Below are positions 5,032 to 49,876 of a stretch of 64,000 nucleotides of DNA, piece by piece (the stretch's first letter is position 1; every line of letters begins with the position of its first letter). A program made the translations under genes and the position numbers. The stretch lies in NCBI RefSeq assembly GCF_056746865.1, contig NZ_CM163382.1. One strand, written 5' to 3'. The notes under the pieces are model-generated. The model ran no database searches. It was not told the DNA's origin and saw only the letters and a program-made list of their open reading frames with translations.

Positions 5032-5850
5032 TCAGCGCAGGCTCTCCAGCATCGTTTCTGCCATCACCCACAATGCGCGGTTGAGTTTAATATCGGTGTC
5101 GATGCTGTGAATGGCCCGGGTATGGATACGTTTTCCTTTTGCACTGCGACCGGAAATCCCGCCTTTCAGCATATTCTCCTGGATGGTCTGATATGCGCTC
5201 CACAGGTCCTTACCGTAATCCTCCCGGCGTCGCGGCGTCAGAATGTCGGCGGTGGTGACGGGCTGATGTTCGTCACCATAACGGTAAGTCAGTGCCGCCT
5301 GTGCCAGCGCCTGGCGTGCCGGTGGCGGCAGGACCAGCGACTGCATGGCATCACGCTTCTCCTCTATCCGGTCAAACACGCCCACCACTTCGTAAGCCCC
5401 TTCAATGACTCTGTCCACCACATTTCCCCGGTGCGGAACACGCACTTCCCCCAGAGACTGGCCACAGACGCACCCGTTCTGGCAGACGAACCTGAAGTAA
5501 CCCGGCAGCATCTGGTAGCTGGAGGTACCGTCATGAGAGTTGAGCAGAATAATTTCAGGGACATGTTCTCCGTTTATCTCTCCGGCCCGCCGCAGACGCA
5601 GCATGTGTTTGGTATATTCCCGGCGGCTCTGGTCGCGCACACGGGTCTGGCAGGCGAAGAACGGCTGAAAGCCTTCCCGCTGCAGATTTTCCAGGACGGT
5701 AATGGTGGGAATGTACGCATACCGTTCACTGCGGGAGGTGTGCCGGTCTTCTCCAAAAATACTCGGGACGTGGTACATCAGTTCTTCGCGTGTCAGTGGG
5801 CGCTCCCGACGGATCTGATTTACATGACCAAAACGACTGGCTAATTGCAT
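5032..5850 (-). CDS. DUF932 protein (YafZ/YfjQ-neighbour family)
   Basis: 272-aa ORF; family recognised by sequence memory and synteny. Confidence 0.55.
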   Translation of the reverse strand: MQLASRFGHVNQIRRERPLTREELMYHVPSIFGEDRHTSRSERYAYIPTITVLENLQREGFQPFFACQTRVRDQSRREYTKHMLRLRRAGEINGEHVPEIILLNSHDGTSSYQMLPGYFRFVCQNGCVCGQSLGEVRVPHRGNVVDRVIEGAYEVVGVFDRIEEKRDAMQSLVLPPPARQALAQAALTYRYGDEHQPVTTADILTPRRREDYGKDLWSAYQTIQENMLKGGISGRSAKGKRIHTRAIHSIDTDIKLNRALWVMAETMLESLR

Positions 5851-16506: not shown

Positions 16507-17329
16507 AGGGAGATGAAAAAGGCAATAGCAGAACTGAGTGACAGTGAAACCATTCTGGCGTACAGGGTTGGATGGTGAAACTGATAAAAAAACCCTCTGA
16601 AAATTCTGTCAGAGGGTGTAGTCAAAAATGGTAGATATTTACGATGCAGTAATGCTTTCACTCCGGTAATTAATTTCCGTGATTAACTGCTTTCGATCAA
16701 TAAAGGAATTGCAAAAGTGTGATCTTGTTCACGACATCGTGGATGATAATATGCCTGATGTCTGAATCCGGAAACAGTGCTCTGGCGGGTTTCATGTGAA
16801 GTTGACGGATAAAAAATCCGCACGACCAGACAGACGTGCGGTTTACGAAATTCGTAACAAGAGGCTTTTCTACGGATCACGTGGTGCGTGCCACGTGAAA
16901 TTTTTGTAGCGCAAAATGTGCAATGTGTAAATACAAGGAAGGAAAAAAGTTAAATTGGTAGAAGTCCATGCCTGCCACATGTACGTCTGCATTCCTCGTT
17001 TTGAACAGAATTCTCACCAGACATCGTGAATTTCTCATTCAATCATCAGAGATATTAACCAGGATTTTTATTGTTTTGTGATATCAGCAGTGCAGGTATA
17101 CAGACGTTAAAGTAATCAGGTTTATTATAACCACCTTTACAAAGTTGTATATGTTTATAATTTAATGATTTTAATGCCAGTCGTTTTCTGCTGCTTAAAT
17201 TGAGGTCGCATATTATACACAATAATATTCTTAGCATTATTAAATTAATAAGAGAGGATTCTTATCACTGTATTTTTGCTCCGCACTACCGTTCTGGCTG
17301 GTGAAGTAATAATACAGGAGAATAACAGA

Positions 17330-18871
17330 ATGCTTAAAAGACGTGATGCTTTTTTAAAGAAAAGCGCGCTGGCAGTGAGTGTGGCCCTGCTGCTCTCGGC
17401 TCAGGCTCAGGCTGTTTTGACAGGGCCTGTTGATGGTAATTCTTCCAGCTTACTGATTGGAGAAAACTCTTTTATTACGAATTTAACTGGTACAGTTAAT
17501 AACACTTTCCTTTTGGGAGGTGGCGCTTTTAACCTGGATTCACCAGGAAGTCTTCAGTTTGGCTCTTTTTCGGAAGTGTATAATTCTCCACACAGTGTCA
17601 CCCTGGGAAGGGATGCCGGTCAGGCTGAGTCAAAATATGGTGTTGCCATAGGTAAGAGCGCTGAGGTATTTAATTCACAGCATAGTGTTGCTATTGGGGG
17701 ATGGGCTGGAATAGAAAATTCTTCAGGCTCTGTAGCTCTGGGCCATGGCTCACAGGTGTCGGGAGAAAATAACGTGGTATCTGTTGGTGCCGGGCCTGAG
17801 GGATATGGAAAGAGTGTCAAAGGAGCACCGGAAACCCGCCGGATTATAAATGTGTCTGATGGTATCAATAACACAGATGCAGCGACGGTAGGGCAACTGA
17901 ATGAACGATTTGATGATGCACAGGTCTTTTTGTTGCAGACGAATGAAAGAATTGACGAGACAGATAAACGTCTTTCAACAGTTCATGCTGAACTCAGCAG
18001 GGATATTATTGCAGGCACATCGGCAGCGGTGACGTATACAGATGTAACAGCGCTTGCACTTCAGGATGAGATAAAGGATGGGACGAACAAAGTACGTGAT
18101 GAGTTGAAATCACAGGGAGACAGTCTGCGTGGTGAGATAGGCGGTGTATACAGAGATGCCCGTGCTCATACTGACAGTCAGGTCACAGCAGTACGTGATG
18201 AACTGAAGGCAGAGGGAGACAGTCTGCGCGGTGAGATAGGCGGTGTATACAGAGATGCCCGTGCTCATACTGACAGTCAGGTCACAGCAGTACGTGATGA
18301 ACTCAGCAGGGATATTATTGCAGGCACATCGGCAGCGGTGGCGTATACGGATGCATCTTCTCTTGCTCTTCAGGATGAAATAAAAGAAAAAGCGGATGAA
18401 ACAGTTCAGGTTTCCCGGGCTTATACAGATAAAAGTGTACGGGATGCCCGTAAAGAAGCGAAAAGCCAGGCAGAACATCTCAGCGATGTGCTTGTGAAGA
18501 ACAGGGCGCAGACGGATGCAGCAATAGCCTCAAATACAGCAGCGATAAGGAATAACAGTCATCGTCTGGATTTGACGGAAGCCTGGCAGAAGATGGCGAC
18601 AGAGAGAATGAATAATATGCAGGAGCAGATTAAAGAGAACCGGAAGGAGTTAAGGGAGAGTGCAGCCCAGAGCGCGGCACTGGCCGGTCTTTTCCAGCCA
18701 TACAGTGTTGGAAAATTTAACGCGACAGCAGCCGTTGGTGGTTACCGTGATGAGCAGGCCATTGCGGTGGGCGTGGGCTACCGTTTCACAGAGAATGTGG
18801 CAGGAAAAGTTGCAGTTGCTGCAGGTGGGTCATCCGCATCGTGGAATGCTGGTGTGAATTTTGAGTTCTGA
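17330..18871 (+). CDS. Trimeric autotransporter adhesin, YadA-like (possibly Eib/Saa-like), 513 aa
   Basis: Signal peptide ([28 protein letters not shown]), head repeats (GVAIG, SVAIGG, SVALGH), neck motif [11 protein letters not shown], coiled-coil stalk with repeats, C-terminal anchor ending NAGVNFEF. Confidence 0.8.
18092..18289 (+). repeat. Two near-identical 99-bp tandem repeats within the adhesin stalk (33-aa units), plus a third partial unit
   Basis: Units start at 18092 and 18191 and differ at only a few positions; a further roughly 45-bp direct repeat at 17984-18036 and 18296-18348. Confidence 0.85.
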
Positions 18872-18892: not shown

Positions 18893-20265
18893 GTCCCGGG
18901 GGGAGTCCCCATAAGCGCTAACTTAAGGGTTGTGGTATTACGCCTGATATGATTTAACGTGCCGATGAATTACTCTCACGATAACTGGTCAGCAATTCTG
19001 GCCCATATTGGTAAGCCCGAAGAACTGGATACTTCGGCACGTAATGCCGGGGCTCTAACCCGCCGCCGCGAAATTCGTGATGCTGCAACTCTGCTACGTC
19101 TGGGGCTGGCTTACGGCCCCGGGGGGATGTCATTACGTGAAGTCACTGCATGGGCTCAGCTCCATGACGTTGCAACATTATCTGACGTGGCTCTCCTGAA
19201 GCGGCTGCGGAATGCCGCCGACTGGTTTGGCATACTTGCCGCACAAACACTTGCTGTACGCGCCGCAGTTACGGGTTGTACAAGCGGAAAGAGATTGCGT
19301 CTTGTCGATGGAACAGCAATCAGTGCGCCCGGGGGCGGCAGCGCTGAATGGCGACTACATATGGGATATGATCCTCATACCTGTCAGTTCACTGATTTTG
19401 AGCTAACCGACAGCAGAGACGCTGAACGGCTGGACCGATTTGCGCAAACGGCAGACGAGATACGCATTGCTGACCGGGGATTCGGTTCGCGTCCCGAATG
19501 TATCCGCTCACTTGCTTTTGGAGAAGCTGATTATATCGTCCGGGTTCACTGGCGAGGATTGCGCTGGTTAACTGCAGAAGGAATGCGCTTTGACATGATG
19601 GGTTTTCTGCGCGGGCTGGATTGCGGTAAGAACGGTGAAACCACTGTAATGATAGGCAATTCAGGTAATAAAAAAGCCGGAGCTCCTTTTCCGGCACGTC
19701 TCATTGCCGTATCACTTCCTCCCGAAAAAGCATTAATCAGTAAAACCCGACTGCTCAGCGAGAATCGTCGAAAAGGACGAGTAGTTCAGGCGGAAACGCT
19801 GGAAGCAGCGGGCCATGTGCTATTGCTAACATCATTACCGGAAGATGAATATTCAGCAGAGCAAGTGGCTGATTGTTACCGTCTGCGATGGCAAATTGAA
19901 CTGGCTTTTAAGCGGCTCAAAAGTTTGCTGCACCTGGATGCTTTGCGTGCAAAGGAACCTGAACTCGCGAAAGCGTGGATATTTGCTAATCTACTCGCCG
20001 CATTTTTAATTGACGACATAATCCAGCCATCGCTGGATTTCCCCCCCAGAAGTGCCGGATCCGAAAAGAAGAACTAACTCGTTGTGGAGAATAACAAAAA
20101 TGGTCATCTGGAGCTTACAGGTGGCCATTCGTGGGACAGTATCCCTGACAGCCTACAAAACGCAATTGAAGAACGCGAGGCATCGTCTTAACGAGGCACC
20201 GAGGCGTCGCATTCTTCAGATGGTTCAACCCTTAAGTTAGCGCTTATGGGGGAGTCCCCCGGGAT
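18893..20265 (+). mobile_element. IS4-family insertion sequence with about 38-bp terminal inverted repeats
   Basis: IRL cccggggggagtccccataagcgctaacttaagggttg (18893-) and IRR caacccttaagttagcgcttatgggggagtcccccggg (-20265); transposase ORF 18959-20077 has the IS4 YREK signature (Y-RL-R-WQI-E-LAFKRL-K). Confidence 0.7.
18959..20077 (+). CDS. IS4-family DDE transposase
   Basis: 372-aa ORF, YREK motif, bounded by the element IRs. Confidence 0.7.
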   Translation: MPMNYSHDNWSAILAHIGKPEELDTSARNAGALTRRREIRDAATLLRLGLAYGPGGMSLREVTAWAQLHDVATLSDVALLKRLRNAADWFGILAAQTLAVRAAVTGCTSGKRLRLVDGTAISAPGGGSAEWRLHMGYDPHTCQFTDFELTDSRDAERLDRFAQTADEIRIADRGFGSRPECIRSLAFGEADYIVRVHWRGLRWLTAEGMRFDMMGFLRGLDCGKNGETTVMIGNSGNKKAGAPFPARLIAVSLPPEKALISKTRLLSENRRKGRVVQAETLEAAGHVLLLTSLPEDEYSAEQVADCYRLRWQIELAFKRLKSLLHLDALRAKEPELAKAWIFANLLAAFLIDDIIQPSLDFPPRSAGSEKKN

Positions 20266-20281
20266 ATAATGAGGTACAGAG

Positions 20282-20737
20282 ATGCTGGATATAATCCTGG
20301 CGACGAGAGATATTTATTTTGAAAAAGCCCTGCGAGAGGTATTTGGAACCGTAAGCAGTCGAATCAGATATATAGAAGATGCCATATCAGACAGAAGAAG
20401 GGTGCAGTCAGGCAGGTCATTCAGATATTATTTTGTATTCTGTGATGATGAGTATACAGATATTGTTCGTATTCTTTTTACCGGAGAGGCCTGCTGTATT
20501 CTGAATAAGTCGATGCTGAATCTGAGAGCGGCCGGAGGTGTGTTGACGCTGGAAGAGCGCAGAGCGGTACTGAACCGGTATTACAGAGGTTTAAGTATTG
20601 CGGAGATTACAGAAGAGACGGGGCAGAATGACAAGACGGTATACGGTCATCTTCGTCGTGCACTGCAGCGGTCTGGATTCCGGAAGGGGCGTTTTATAAA
20701 GGGGAGAGAAGCGGCGGGGGATTCAGGTGTTGAATAA
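20282..20737 (+). CDS. Orphan LuxR/GerE-type HTH regulator with atypical N-terminus
   Basis: C-terminal LTLEERRAVLNRYYRGLSIAEITEETGQNDKTVYGHLRRALQR resembles a LuxR-type HTH; RBS gaggt upstream. Confidence 0.5.
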   Translation: MLDIILATRDIYFEKALREVFGTVSSRIRYIEDAISDRRRVQSGRSFRYYFVFCDDEYTDIVRILFTGEACCILNKSMLNLRAAGGVLTLEERRAVLNRYYRGLSIAEITEETGQNDKTVYGHLRRALQRSGFRKGRFIKGREAAGDSGVE

Positions 20738-48953: not shown

Positions 48954-49484
48954 CTAGACGATGCTGTCCAGGGTACTGAGGAAATAGGCCATGGCCGGTG
49001 TCACCGGTGAATCACAGCTGAATCCGGGTACCATCCCGCCGATAAGCTGTGTGGCCGGATGACCCAGCGCATCTGCATATTTGAAACGAATTGCTGAACG
49101 GCGCTTCCCCTGTATTTTCATATCCGCCGGATTTCCCCCGCCGGCACTCAGCCCGGACAGGCCGTCAGTGATGGCATTCTCCGGGCCACCTGCGGTCCGG
49201 CTGACCAGCGACATCTCTTTCCAGGGATTACCACCCGGTGCCGTATAGGTGGAAATAACCACTTCCGGGATGAAATGTGTCACCTTCACGGAAATTCTGA
49301 CCGTACAGCCAGACGCGCTGCAGTAAAGCCAGTAACAAATCCCGCTGACACGCCAGCTGATATAGTCCGGTGCCGCAGTACTGGCGATAATGCTGGCGGT
49401 GTTCAGTGATACAGACGCCAGGGGCAGTGATGCCACACTCAGTAACAGCACGCCGGTACGCAGACGACATTTCAGGGACATCAT
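48954..49484 (-). CDS. Exported hypothetical protein, cysteine-containing, conjugative-element-like
   Basis: Signal peptide; start ATG overlaps the upstream gene stop (ATGA coupling at 49481-49484). Confidence 0.4.
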   Translation of the reverse strand: MMSLKCRLRTGVLLLSVASLPLASVSLNTASIIASTAAPDYISWRVSGICYWLYCSASGCTVRISVKVTHFIPEVVISTYTAPGGNPWKEMSLVSRTAGGPENAITDGLSGLSAGGGNPADMKIQGKRRSAIRFKYADALGHPATQLIGGMVPGFSCDSPVTPAMAYFLSTLDSIV

Positions 49485-49876
49485 GGCTGCACTCCTCCCT
49501 CAGCACGGATTTTCCCGGCCATCACCACATCCATGGTGCCGTAAACCACCTCACTGTCATCAAACACCACGGCAGGGTATTTCTTCACGCCCAGCGACTA
49601 GGCATGTGCCACATCGCGGTAATGACCGGCCAGTTCCGCCTGCATCGTCTGCCATTCGGGAGACTTCATACGTACCCTGACCACCGATTCAGCCTCACCC
49701 GCATCAGCAGGCAACAGGCCCCAAAAGCGGCTCTGAAGCTGCTCAGGCGCATCCAGCAGAACCACCCTGACACCATCAGGAGGATTAACGGGAAGATGCT
49801 GAGAATCGGTATAAATTGTTGTGCCGGCAGACGCTGCCAGCGGCAGGAAAAACAGGGAACAGAAAATCCGGTACAT
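49481..49876 (-). pseudogene. Exported thioredoxin-fold-like protein (TrbB/DsbA-like guess) with in-frame TAG at 49598-49600
   Basis: Signal peptide MYRIFCSLFFLPLAASA; frame continues after TAG for 39 codons to a TGA that overlaps the next start. Confidence 0.35.

Follow-up and report, generated by a model that had tools for sequence, protein, structure and literature searches.

Variation of stalk length in a trimeric autotransporter

We analyzed the gene located at positions 17330-18871 (+ strand) of a 64,000-nucleotide stretch of Escherichia coli DNA (contig NZ_CM163382.1, RefSeq assembly GCF_056746865.1); this whole stretch is called the window below. The gene encodes a trimeric autotransporter adhesin (TAA) of 513 amino acids (aa), very probably displayed at the cell surface, whose stalk length would change by steps of about 5 nm through slippage or unequal recombination of 99-bp units, and through recombination between two outer repeats, A and A'. 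All features given with coordinates for this gene and its immediate vicinity lie on the + strand.

The repeats were identified by a repeat search. Tandem Repeats Finder describes region 18091-18303 as 2.2 copies of a 99-nt period, with 94% matches, no indels and a score of 384. The units are organized as follows: a first tandem unit, B1 (18091-18189, aa 255-287), of KSQ type; a second, B2 (18190-18288, aa 288-320, starting with VRDELKAE), of KAE type; and a partial third unit of 15 nt (18289-18303, aa 321-325, VRDEL), fused to the outer repeat A' (18285-18387, aa 324-352). The latter is 86% identical to the outer repeat A (103 nt, 17976-18078, aa 221-249), from which it is separated by an offset of 309 nt in the 3' direction, and the A/A' pair brackets the tandem B array. 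B1 and B2 show 6 mismatches (94% DNA identity), all within the first 40 nt, the final 59 nt being identical; at the 99-nt offset a perfect match extends over 71 nt. In the protein, 2 of the 33 residues change from one B unit to the other (KSQ versus KAE) and 4 of the 29 from A to A', and the stalk reads in order A, a 5-residue linker, B, B, and VRDEL running into A'. A preliminary description, made from the letters alone, had reported two near-identical 33-aa units, a partial third unit and a more distant second pair: all its numbers are correct, the term "near-perfect" corresponding to 94% at the DNA level. A and B modules bear Y-x-D motifs (VYRD, TYTD, AYTD), which in YadA-type stalks reportedly mark non-heptad, right-handed segments.

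The number of units was then compared among isolates, in a survey of 5,426 complete E. coli genomes. The TAA gene or parts of it are matched in 407 of them, always on the chromosome, and at least 80% of the gene is covered in 39. Relatives of 410, 480, 513 and 546 aa have 0, 1, 2 and 3 tandem B units, respectively, and alleles with two arrays carry up to 4 B units in total. Gene lengths are distributed as follows: 1542 bp, the length found in the window, in most genomes, at an island locus comprised between IS1/transketolase remnants and a gene for a helix-turn-helix (HTH) protein; 1443 bp (-99) in seven complete genomes, for instance AR13438, at the same island locus; 1233 bp (-309) in strain Ch1, again at this locus; and 1641 bp (+99) in strain F374, in a prophage. 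The copy-number change between isolates that the preliminary description had predicted is thus observed, with 0, 1, 2 and 3 tandem units in complete genomes. The module maps fall under two neck types. With the neck of the window we found A-B-A', A-B-B-A' and A-B-B-B-A'; with the second neck type, B'-A', B'-B-A', B'-A-B-B-A', B'-B-A-B-B-A' and B'-B-B-A-B-A'.

Repeat number, whose invariance the preliminary description had named as an argument against its own reading, differs between proteins that are otherwise the same. Among 100 full-length relatives, some of them from draft assemblies, which can collapse tandem repeats, 14 backbones identical at every residue outside the array are each found with two or three different unit numbers, and the window's own backbone is found with 1 and with 2 units. 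Changes of copy number are recent and recurrent. At the DNA level, the alleles of the window and of AR13438 differ by one synonymous substitution and by one 99-bp unit missing in AR13438; since both are on closed chromosomes, assembly collapse is not the explanation. Where a single unit survives, it may be of either variant, KSQ or KAE, and some arrays read KAE-KAE-KAE, a pattern expected from slippage or unequal exchange. The 410-aa allele of Ch1 contains A' alone, and the two segments into which BLAST aligns it have exactly the 103-nt repeat in common. Judging from its sequence, this allele is the product of a recombination between A and A' in which everything between the flanking pair was lost.

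An explanation of these differences by assembly artefacts, tandem repeats having been collapsed or expanded, has some basis: many members of the protein cluster are on short contigs, and stretches of 59-71 nt of perfect identity are collapsible by short-read assemblers. It is nevertheless highly improbable. The alleles with 0, 1, 2 and 3 units are all represented in closed chromosomes, the 1443-bp form alone occurring in the seven complete genomes mentioned above; cases from complete genomes are free of the draft-assembly problem, and the lengths differ by exactly 309, or by whole multiples of 99. The unit being 99 nt long, a multiple of 3, the variation from 0 to 3 units among alleles is an in-frame tandem-repeat polymorphism. 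ON/OFF phase variation was considered and rejected: every change seen amounts to a multiple of 99 or 309 nt, leaves the frame intact and corresponds to size variation.

Gene product and domain architecture

The open reading frame starts with the ATG at 17330, which is also the RefSeq start, and runs over 513 codons plus the stop, ending at 18871. A Shine-Dalgarno sequence, AGGAG, can be read directly at 17316-17320, 9 nt 5' of the ATG. The product is identical to WP_000919995.1, a "YadA-like family protein" of E. coli PK8276, and the 2 kb around the gene are 100% identical to the chromosome of this strain, a chicken isolate from Pakistan. This exact protein is recorded on 66 contigs, from various hosts and countries.

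The protein begins with a signal peptide (aa 1-28, 17330-17413), conserved in every allele and modeled by AlphaFold2 (AF2) as a helix at residues 5-22. Its n-region is basic, its core hydrophobic, and AQA stands at 26-28; cleavage would occur after this AQA, at aa 28, a site judged by eye. A twin-arginine translocation (Tat) export signal was considered for this twin-arginine-like N-terminus and discarded: TIGR01409 gives 7.6 bits versus a cut-off of 16.7, and Pfam gives no match. Some records label shortened copies of the gene "Tat pathway signal sequence protein", a label which looks unsupported by the hidden Markov model (HMM) of the Tat signal.

The head (aa ~29-160, 17414-17809) is made of short repeated beta strands (AF2 strands 40-152) and would be a divergent left-handed beta-roll of YadA type; Pfam YadA_head scores 18.7 bits, under its cut-off of 25. 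The head-neck fragment 2YO0 of SadA matches the protein with an E value of 4e-8, SadA fragments covering residues 131-201, and the head and neck of EibE and EibG resemble residues 103-208 (34-36% identity, BLAST E 1e-7 to 3e-8). The neck (aa ~161-192, 17810-17905) corresponds to positions 1-22 of Pfam YadA_stalk, aligned at residues 171-192 with 24.8 bits, below the cut-off of 28.4. It is followed by a coiled-coil stalk (aa ~193-454, 17906-18691), delimited from hydrophobic periodicity and from AF2 helices 187-232, 241-363 and 368-453. The C-terminus is a YadA-type membrane anchor of four beta strands (aa 455-513, 18692-18868): Pfam YadA_anchor (PF03895) spans it with an E value of 3.5e-16, over its cut-off, and the YadA anchor structure 2LME matches residues 438-512 by sequence (E 1.9e-17).

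The AF2 model (mean pLDDT, the predicted local distance difference score, of 74) comprises the signal helix 5-22, strands 40-152, a non-regular neck, about 260 helical residues within 187-453 and strands 463-511; being a monomer with a predicted template modeling score (pTM) of 0.36, it informs on secondary structure and on the anchor fold only. Searched with Foldseek, it matched known structures by the anchor alone: YadA 2LME (TM score 0.74, root-mean-square deviation 1.4 Å), Hia and AtaA. The head is not recoverable from the monomer, and Foldseek gave no significant structural match beyond the anchor. By sequence and model, this head-neck-stalk-anchor layout is that of a canonical lollipop TAA. 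The YadA-type architecture read in the preliminary description is therefore supported by the Pfam anchor, the 2LME match, AF2 and Foldseek. The protein would form an obligate homotrimer at the cell surface.

Exchange of heads and selection

All the alleles share their DNA up to position 17413 of the window, which is the end of the signal peptide, and again from about 18214-18224 to the stop, with more than 99% identity. Between these shared segments at least three head types are found, 39-50% identical to each other. Whole heads are swapped by homologous recombination, the exchanges taking place in the DNA of the signal peptide and in the 3' half, both of them conserved. In the conserved C-terminal half, the ratio of nonsynonymous to synonymous polymorphism (pN/pS) is about 0.2, which indicates purifying selection and argues for a functional protein family. 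Positive selection on the head was considered, some pairs showing 9 nonsynonymous versus 0-2 synonymous differences, and rejected, since the counts are too small and recombination is too likely.

Proposed mechanism

We propose that the protein would function as a type Vc adhesin: once exported by Sec, three chains would each contribute a C-terminal four-strand segment to a 12-strand barrel in the outer membrane, and the passenger would come out of it as a trimer composed of a small beta-roll head, the neck and about 40 nm of coiled-coil stalk, the middle part of this stalk being assembled from 29-aa A and 33-aa B modules. Residues 221-352 show a hydrophobic periodicity of 3.67, a power reached by 1.6% of shuffles, which speaks for this reading. 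As 33 aa correspond to three hendecads, or nine helical turns, gain or loss of a unit preserves the coiled-coil register; one unit more or less would keep both register and reading frame and make the stalk about 5 nm longer or shorter. By the presumed molecular route, unit number would change through replication slippage or unequal homologous exchange between 99-bp units, and recombination between the 103-bp A copies would delete the whole block. Head replacement by homologous recombination would come in addition, as a separate process. By analogy with the other members of the family, the protein rather probably acts in adhesion or autoaggregation. Length variation might be beneficial, for instance in reaching past O-antigen or capsule, or as antigenic change.

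Several observations weigh against this reading, besides the draft assemblies and the monomeric state of the AF2 model already mentioned. The periodicity peak at 3.67 is partly forced by the 33-residue repeat itself. No two members of the same lineage were seen to differ in copy number, the few sets of clonal or resequenced genomes being all at 1542 bp. In the window, an IS421 copy parts the TAA gene from its HTH partner. A scan of the AT-rich region upstream found no sigma-70 consensus promoter on the + strand, a result that is in itself uninformative. Lastly, a 5' remnant limited to nt 1-508 of the gene is what remains in 21 of 45 evenly spaced rows of matching genomes; since about half of the matching E. 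coli genomes keep this remnant only, the TAA gene is dispensable.

These last observations would also fit a gene that in this strain is a passenger of its degraded island, silent or in decay, the repeat variation being neutral drift in a dispensable gene. The island is indeed full of IS fragments and pseudogenes, the remnants of 508 nt are cut by a sul2 island, and the copies of H108 and H109 measure 1543 bp, which implies a frameshift. On the other hand the gene has an intact reading frame, both here and in no fewer than 39 complete genomes, the unit changes are all in frame, and both the low pN/pS of the conserved half and the identity of the protein across hosts and countries argue against decay. 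We regard this passenger explanation as possible but rather unlikely, and retain that of a displayed TAA of variable stalk length; the gene may still be poorly expressed or dispensable in this strain.

Relationship to known adhesins

The preliminary description had left the family open between Eib-like, Saa-like and other. The question is now narrowed: the comparisons speak against a Saa-like protein and against a canonical Eib, and in favor of an Eib-like C-terminus and locus layout. On these comparisons the protein belongs to an unnamed lineage, which has the anchor-proximal module in common with the Eibs.

Identity with Saa is 25.6% over residues 124-490 (375 aligned positions, Saa of pO113). 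For YadA, the NCBIfam model NF033478 gives 77.5 bits versus a cut-off of 750, and identity with Yersinia YadA is 24%. That the protein might be a Saa-type autoagglutinating adhesin or a YadA ortholog, as its general lollipop architecture would allow, is thus refuted at the sequence level and has next to no probability left. Saa resembles the protein in being a TAA of similar length, and its gene size also varies with the number of C-terminal direct repeat units (PMC4060028); Saa is plasmid-borne, and its repeats differ in sequence and position from those described here. YadA is the prototype of lollipop TAAs, with an anchor that is 48% identical when aligned by fold. It differs by a repeat of 15 aa, versus 33 here, and by its head, that of the window being shorter and below the Pfam threshold. 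The YadA stalk is said to comprise a right-handed segment with Y-x-D motifs and short repeats. In Saa, the repeats are 37-aa units near the C-terminus.

The closest named proteins are the Eibs (EibA, C, D, E, F, G and H), which are found in the same species, have a similar size and are close in the anchor and in the last coiled-coil segment. When phage records were searched by tblastn, eibA, C, D and E were matched by the C-terminal part of the query only. Identities are 57% with EibA over residues 396-513 (118 aa), 40% with EibD over 299-513 (225 aa), 41% with EibE over 340-513, and 42% with EibG of JNEC-KY208 over 329-513 (214 aa), again C-terminal only. The head and neck, whose type is LPBR (left-handed parallel beta-roll), have with EibE and EibG the resemblance given above. 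By contrast, the signal peptide (MLKRRDAF versus MSKKFT) and the stalk differ, A and B modules being absent from the Eibs, and the flanking DNA is not homologous.

We therefore weighed the possibility of a true Eib, i.e. a prophage-borne immunoglobulin-binding TAA which binds the Fc region of immunoglobulin G (IgG) via a C-terminal left-handed coiled coil. The Eib family is characterised by non-immune binding of IgG Fc, and also of IgA. Apart from the C-terminal identities with EibA and EibD, several features recall an Eib. Many members of the cluster are named "immunoglobulin-binding protein" in older NCBI records, a legacy name which is not evidence; the 546-aa allele occupies, in a lambdoid prophage, after Lom, tail-fibre and DUF4376 genes, the slot of eibA/D/E/G; a small HTH-like gene lies 3' of the TAA gene, as ORF-156 does 3' of eib genes; and a fragment of an IbrB-like gene is found in the same island. 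As to Fc binding, mutation D391A of EibG abolishes it, and this Asp lies in a GRTDRID[Y/A]AVG segment (preprint 10.64898/2025.12.25.695649). An HMM of Eib C-termini aligns the protein of the window only from residue 394, just after this segment, where the MAFFT alignment opens a 10-residue gap; an alternative alignment made by eye pairs QTDAAIAS (394-401), including T395-D396-A397-A398, with the Eib sequence RIDAAVGS, whose I-D-A-A contains the Fc-critical Asp, so that this Asp may be retained. A saddle minidomain and an Eib N-terminal domain are listed among the common features of Eibs (PMC12511318); pairwise and MAFFT alignments found neither the saddle (TTVGV.SDG.LTRAEGA) nor the N-terminal domain in the protein of the window, where AF2 places a continuous helix instead of the saddle. 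For each of the Eibs, overall identity stays below 45% and concerns the C-terminal part only. With a limit as loose as E<=10, the EibD crystal fragment 2XQH gave no match, and 2XZR matched at E 0.18 only; with up to 3 mismatches allowed, none of three published eibG primers matched. Moreover, ClaA and ClaB show that Eib-like TAAs can be without Fc binding. A true Eib is therefore unlikely, as is immunoglobulin binding, and we keep to an unnamed lineage with an Eib-like C-terminus.

ClaA, ClaB and the "Yal" proteins are newly described Eib-like E. coli TAAs which also lack the Eib N-terminal domain; Yal, like the protein of the window, lacks the saddle too (bioRxiv 10.64898/2025.12.25.695649). 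The lineage may correspond to the Yal clades, for which no function is known. ClaA and ClaB themselves were rejected: the protein ends encoded by the published cloning primers (MKNNDRKY.../...VGVNFEF for ClaA, MKINRHGI.../...VGVNWEF for ClaB) are unmatched within 4 mismatches in the window and in all the alleles compared, and the claA locus examined adjoins a fimbrial operon. An exact 25-nt match to the start of claA or claB is present in about 380 complete genomes. In E. coli 4/0 (NZ_CP023849.1, an isolate from urinary tract infection) the claA start belongs to a decayed, multiply frameshifted copy beside a fimbrial usher operon (locus L017, 4001-5900), with a signal peptide and a context different from those of the TAA of the window.

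Significance

In-frame repeat polymorphism is already known in TAA stalks, for example in Saa (PMC4060028) and YadA, and is ordinary for this class of proteins. What is new here is an uncharacterised E. coli TAA with a natural allelic series; the current understanding of the class is unchanged. The literature on islands of avian pathogenic E. coli (APEC) and of extra-intestinal pathogenic E. coli was searched, which yielded nothing specific to this lineage. TAAs are adhesins, serum-resistance factors and vaccine candidates, and the present lineage is found mostly in poultry and human extra-intestinal isolates, beside the aerobactin and sit iron-uptake genes. With 0 to 3 modules on otherwise identical proteins, and at least three head types on one stalk, the alleles constitute a ready series for studying the effects of stalk length and head on adhesion, aggregation and immune recognition. 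The database label "immunoglobulin-binding protein" should not count as evidence of Eib function.

Genomic context of the gene

Downstream of the TAA gene, the left part of a GC hairpin (CCCGGGGGGAGTCCCCCGGG) occupies 18895-18910. The hairpin is interrupted by the IS421 copy (IS4/IS186 type, 1337 bp, 18911-20247), inserted within a 12-bp target duplication, GGGGGAGTCCCC, whose two copies are at 18899-18910 and 20248-20259. Strain GF4 has this insertion too. The partner gene (20282-20737) encodes a 151-aa HTH protein resembling sigma-70 region 4 (Pfam Sigma70_r4_2, E 2.2e-7), a putative regulator. All the uninterrupted loci have the same layout: the TAA stop, a 61-nt spacer (5444-5504 of the AR13438 locus) with the GC hairpin, then the gene of the 151-aa HTH protein. 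Downstream of the eib genes there are also a hairpin and ORF-156, a gene of about 150 aa whose uncharacterised product is about 21% identical to the HTH protein over its full length. The latter may be a dedicated regulator of such adhesin cassettes.

The Eib genes are morons placed in lambdoid prophages, after tail-fibre and DUF4376 genes. In some strains the TAA gene is placed likewise, the 546-aa allele of F374 lying in exactly this slot. F374 shares DNA with the window from about 16499 to about 20956. The TAA gene and the HTH gene thus look like a mobile two-gene moron, carried here by a degraded island with aerobactin and sit genes. In a broader reading, which we consider tentative and rather doubtful, an unnamed E. 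coli TAA lineage, possibly Yal, would travel as a two-gene cassette with its sigma-70-region-4-like regulator, from tail-fibre slots of prophages to pathogenicity islands and back; its diversity would come independently from register-neutral 33-aa stalk modules of three hendecads and from head replacement, its stalk length being tuned to O-antigen or capsule thickness, or serving antigenic escape.

As a whole, the window (1-64000) is an IS-ridden pathogenicity island with CP4-type toxin-antitoxin and antirestriction genes, iucABCD-iutA, sitABCD, sodC and a group II intron. Unusually many of its coding sequences, including iucD, are marked as frameshifted, which may partly reflect indel errors of the assembly. 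The IbrB-like fragment, at about 49295-49822, is annotated as a pseudogene without N-terminus. IbrAB reportedly activate eib expression.

Disruption of the gene by a probable sul2 element

The breakpoint of the 5' remnants falls at 17835-17837, in the neck-coding region (locus L019, 5001-7850; locus L011, 420-4001). In APEC E123 the TAA gene stops after ...GGAAACCC and the sequence passes on to sul2, a fragment of glmM and ISCR2. The complementary 3' part is found in strain ABW_A19, where it begins with CCCGCCGG and has as neighbours a tyrosine integrase, an HTH gene, repA and repC. Both the overlap of 3 nt (CCC) between the two parts and this gene content point to an insertion of an integrative element of GIsul2 type into the sequence coding for the neck. 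GIsul2 has been published as targeting guaA at its 3' end (PMC5704250). The neck of the TAA gene would be a secondary site for such elements, spreading a sul2-disrupted allele.

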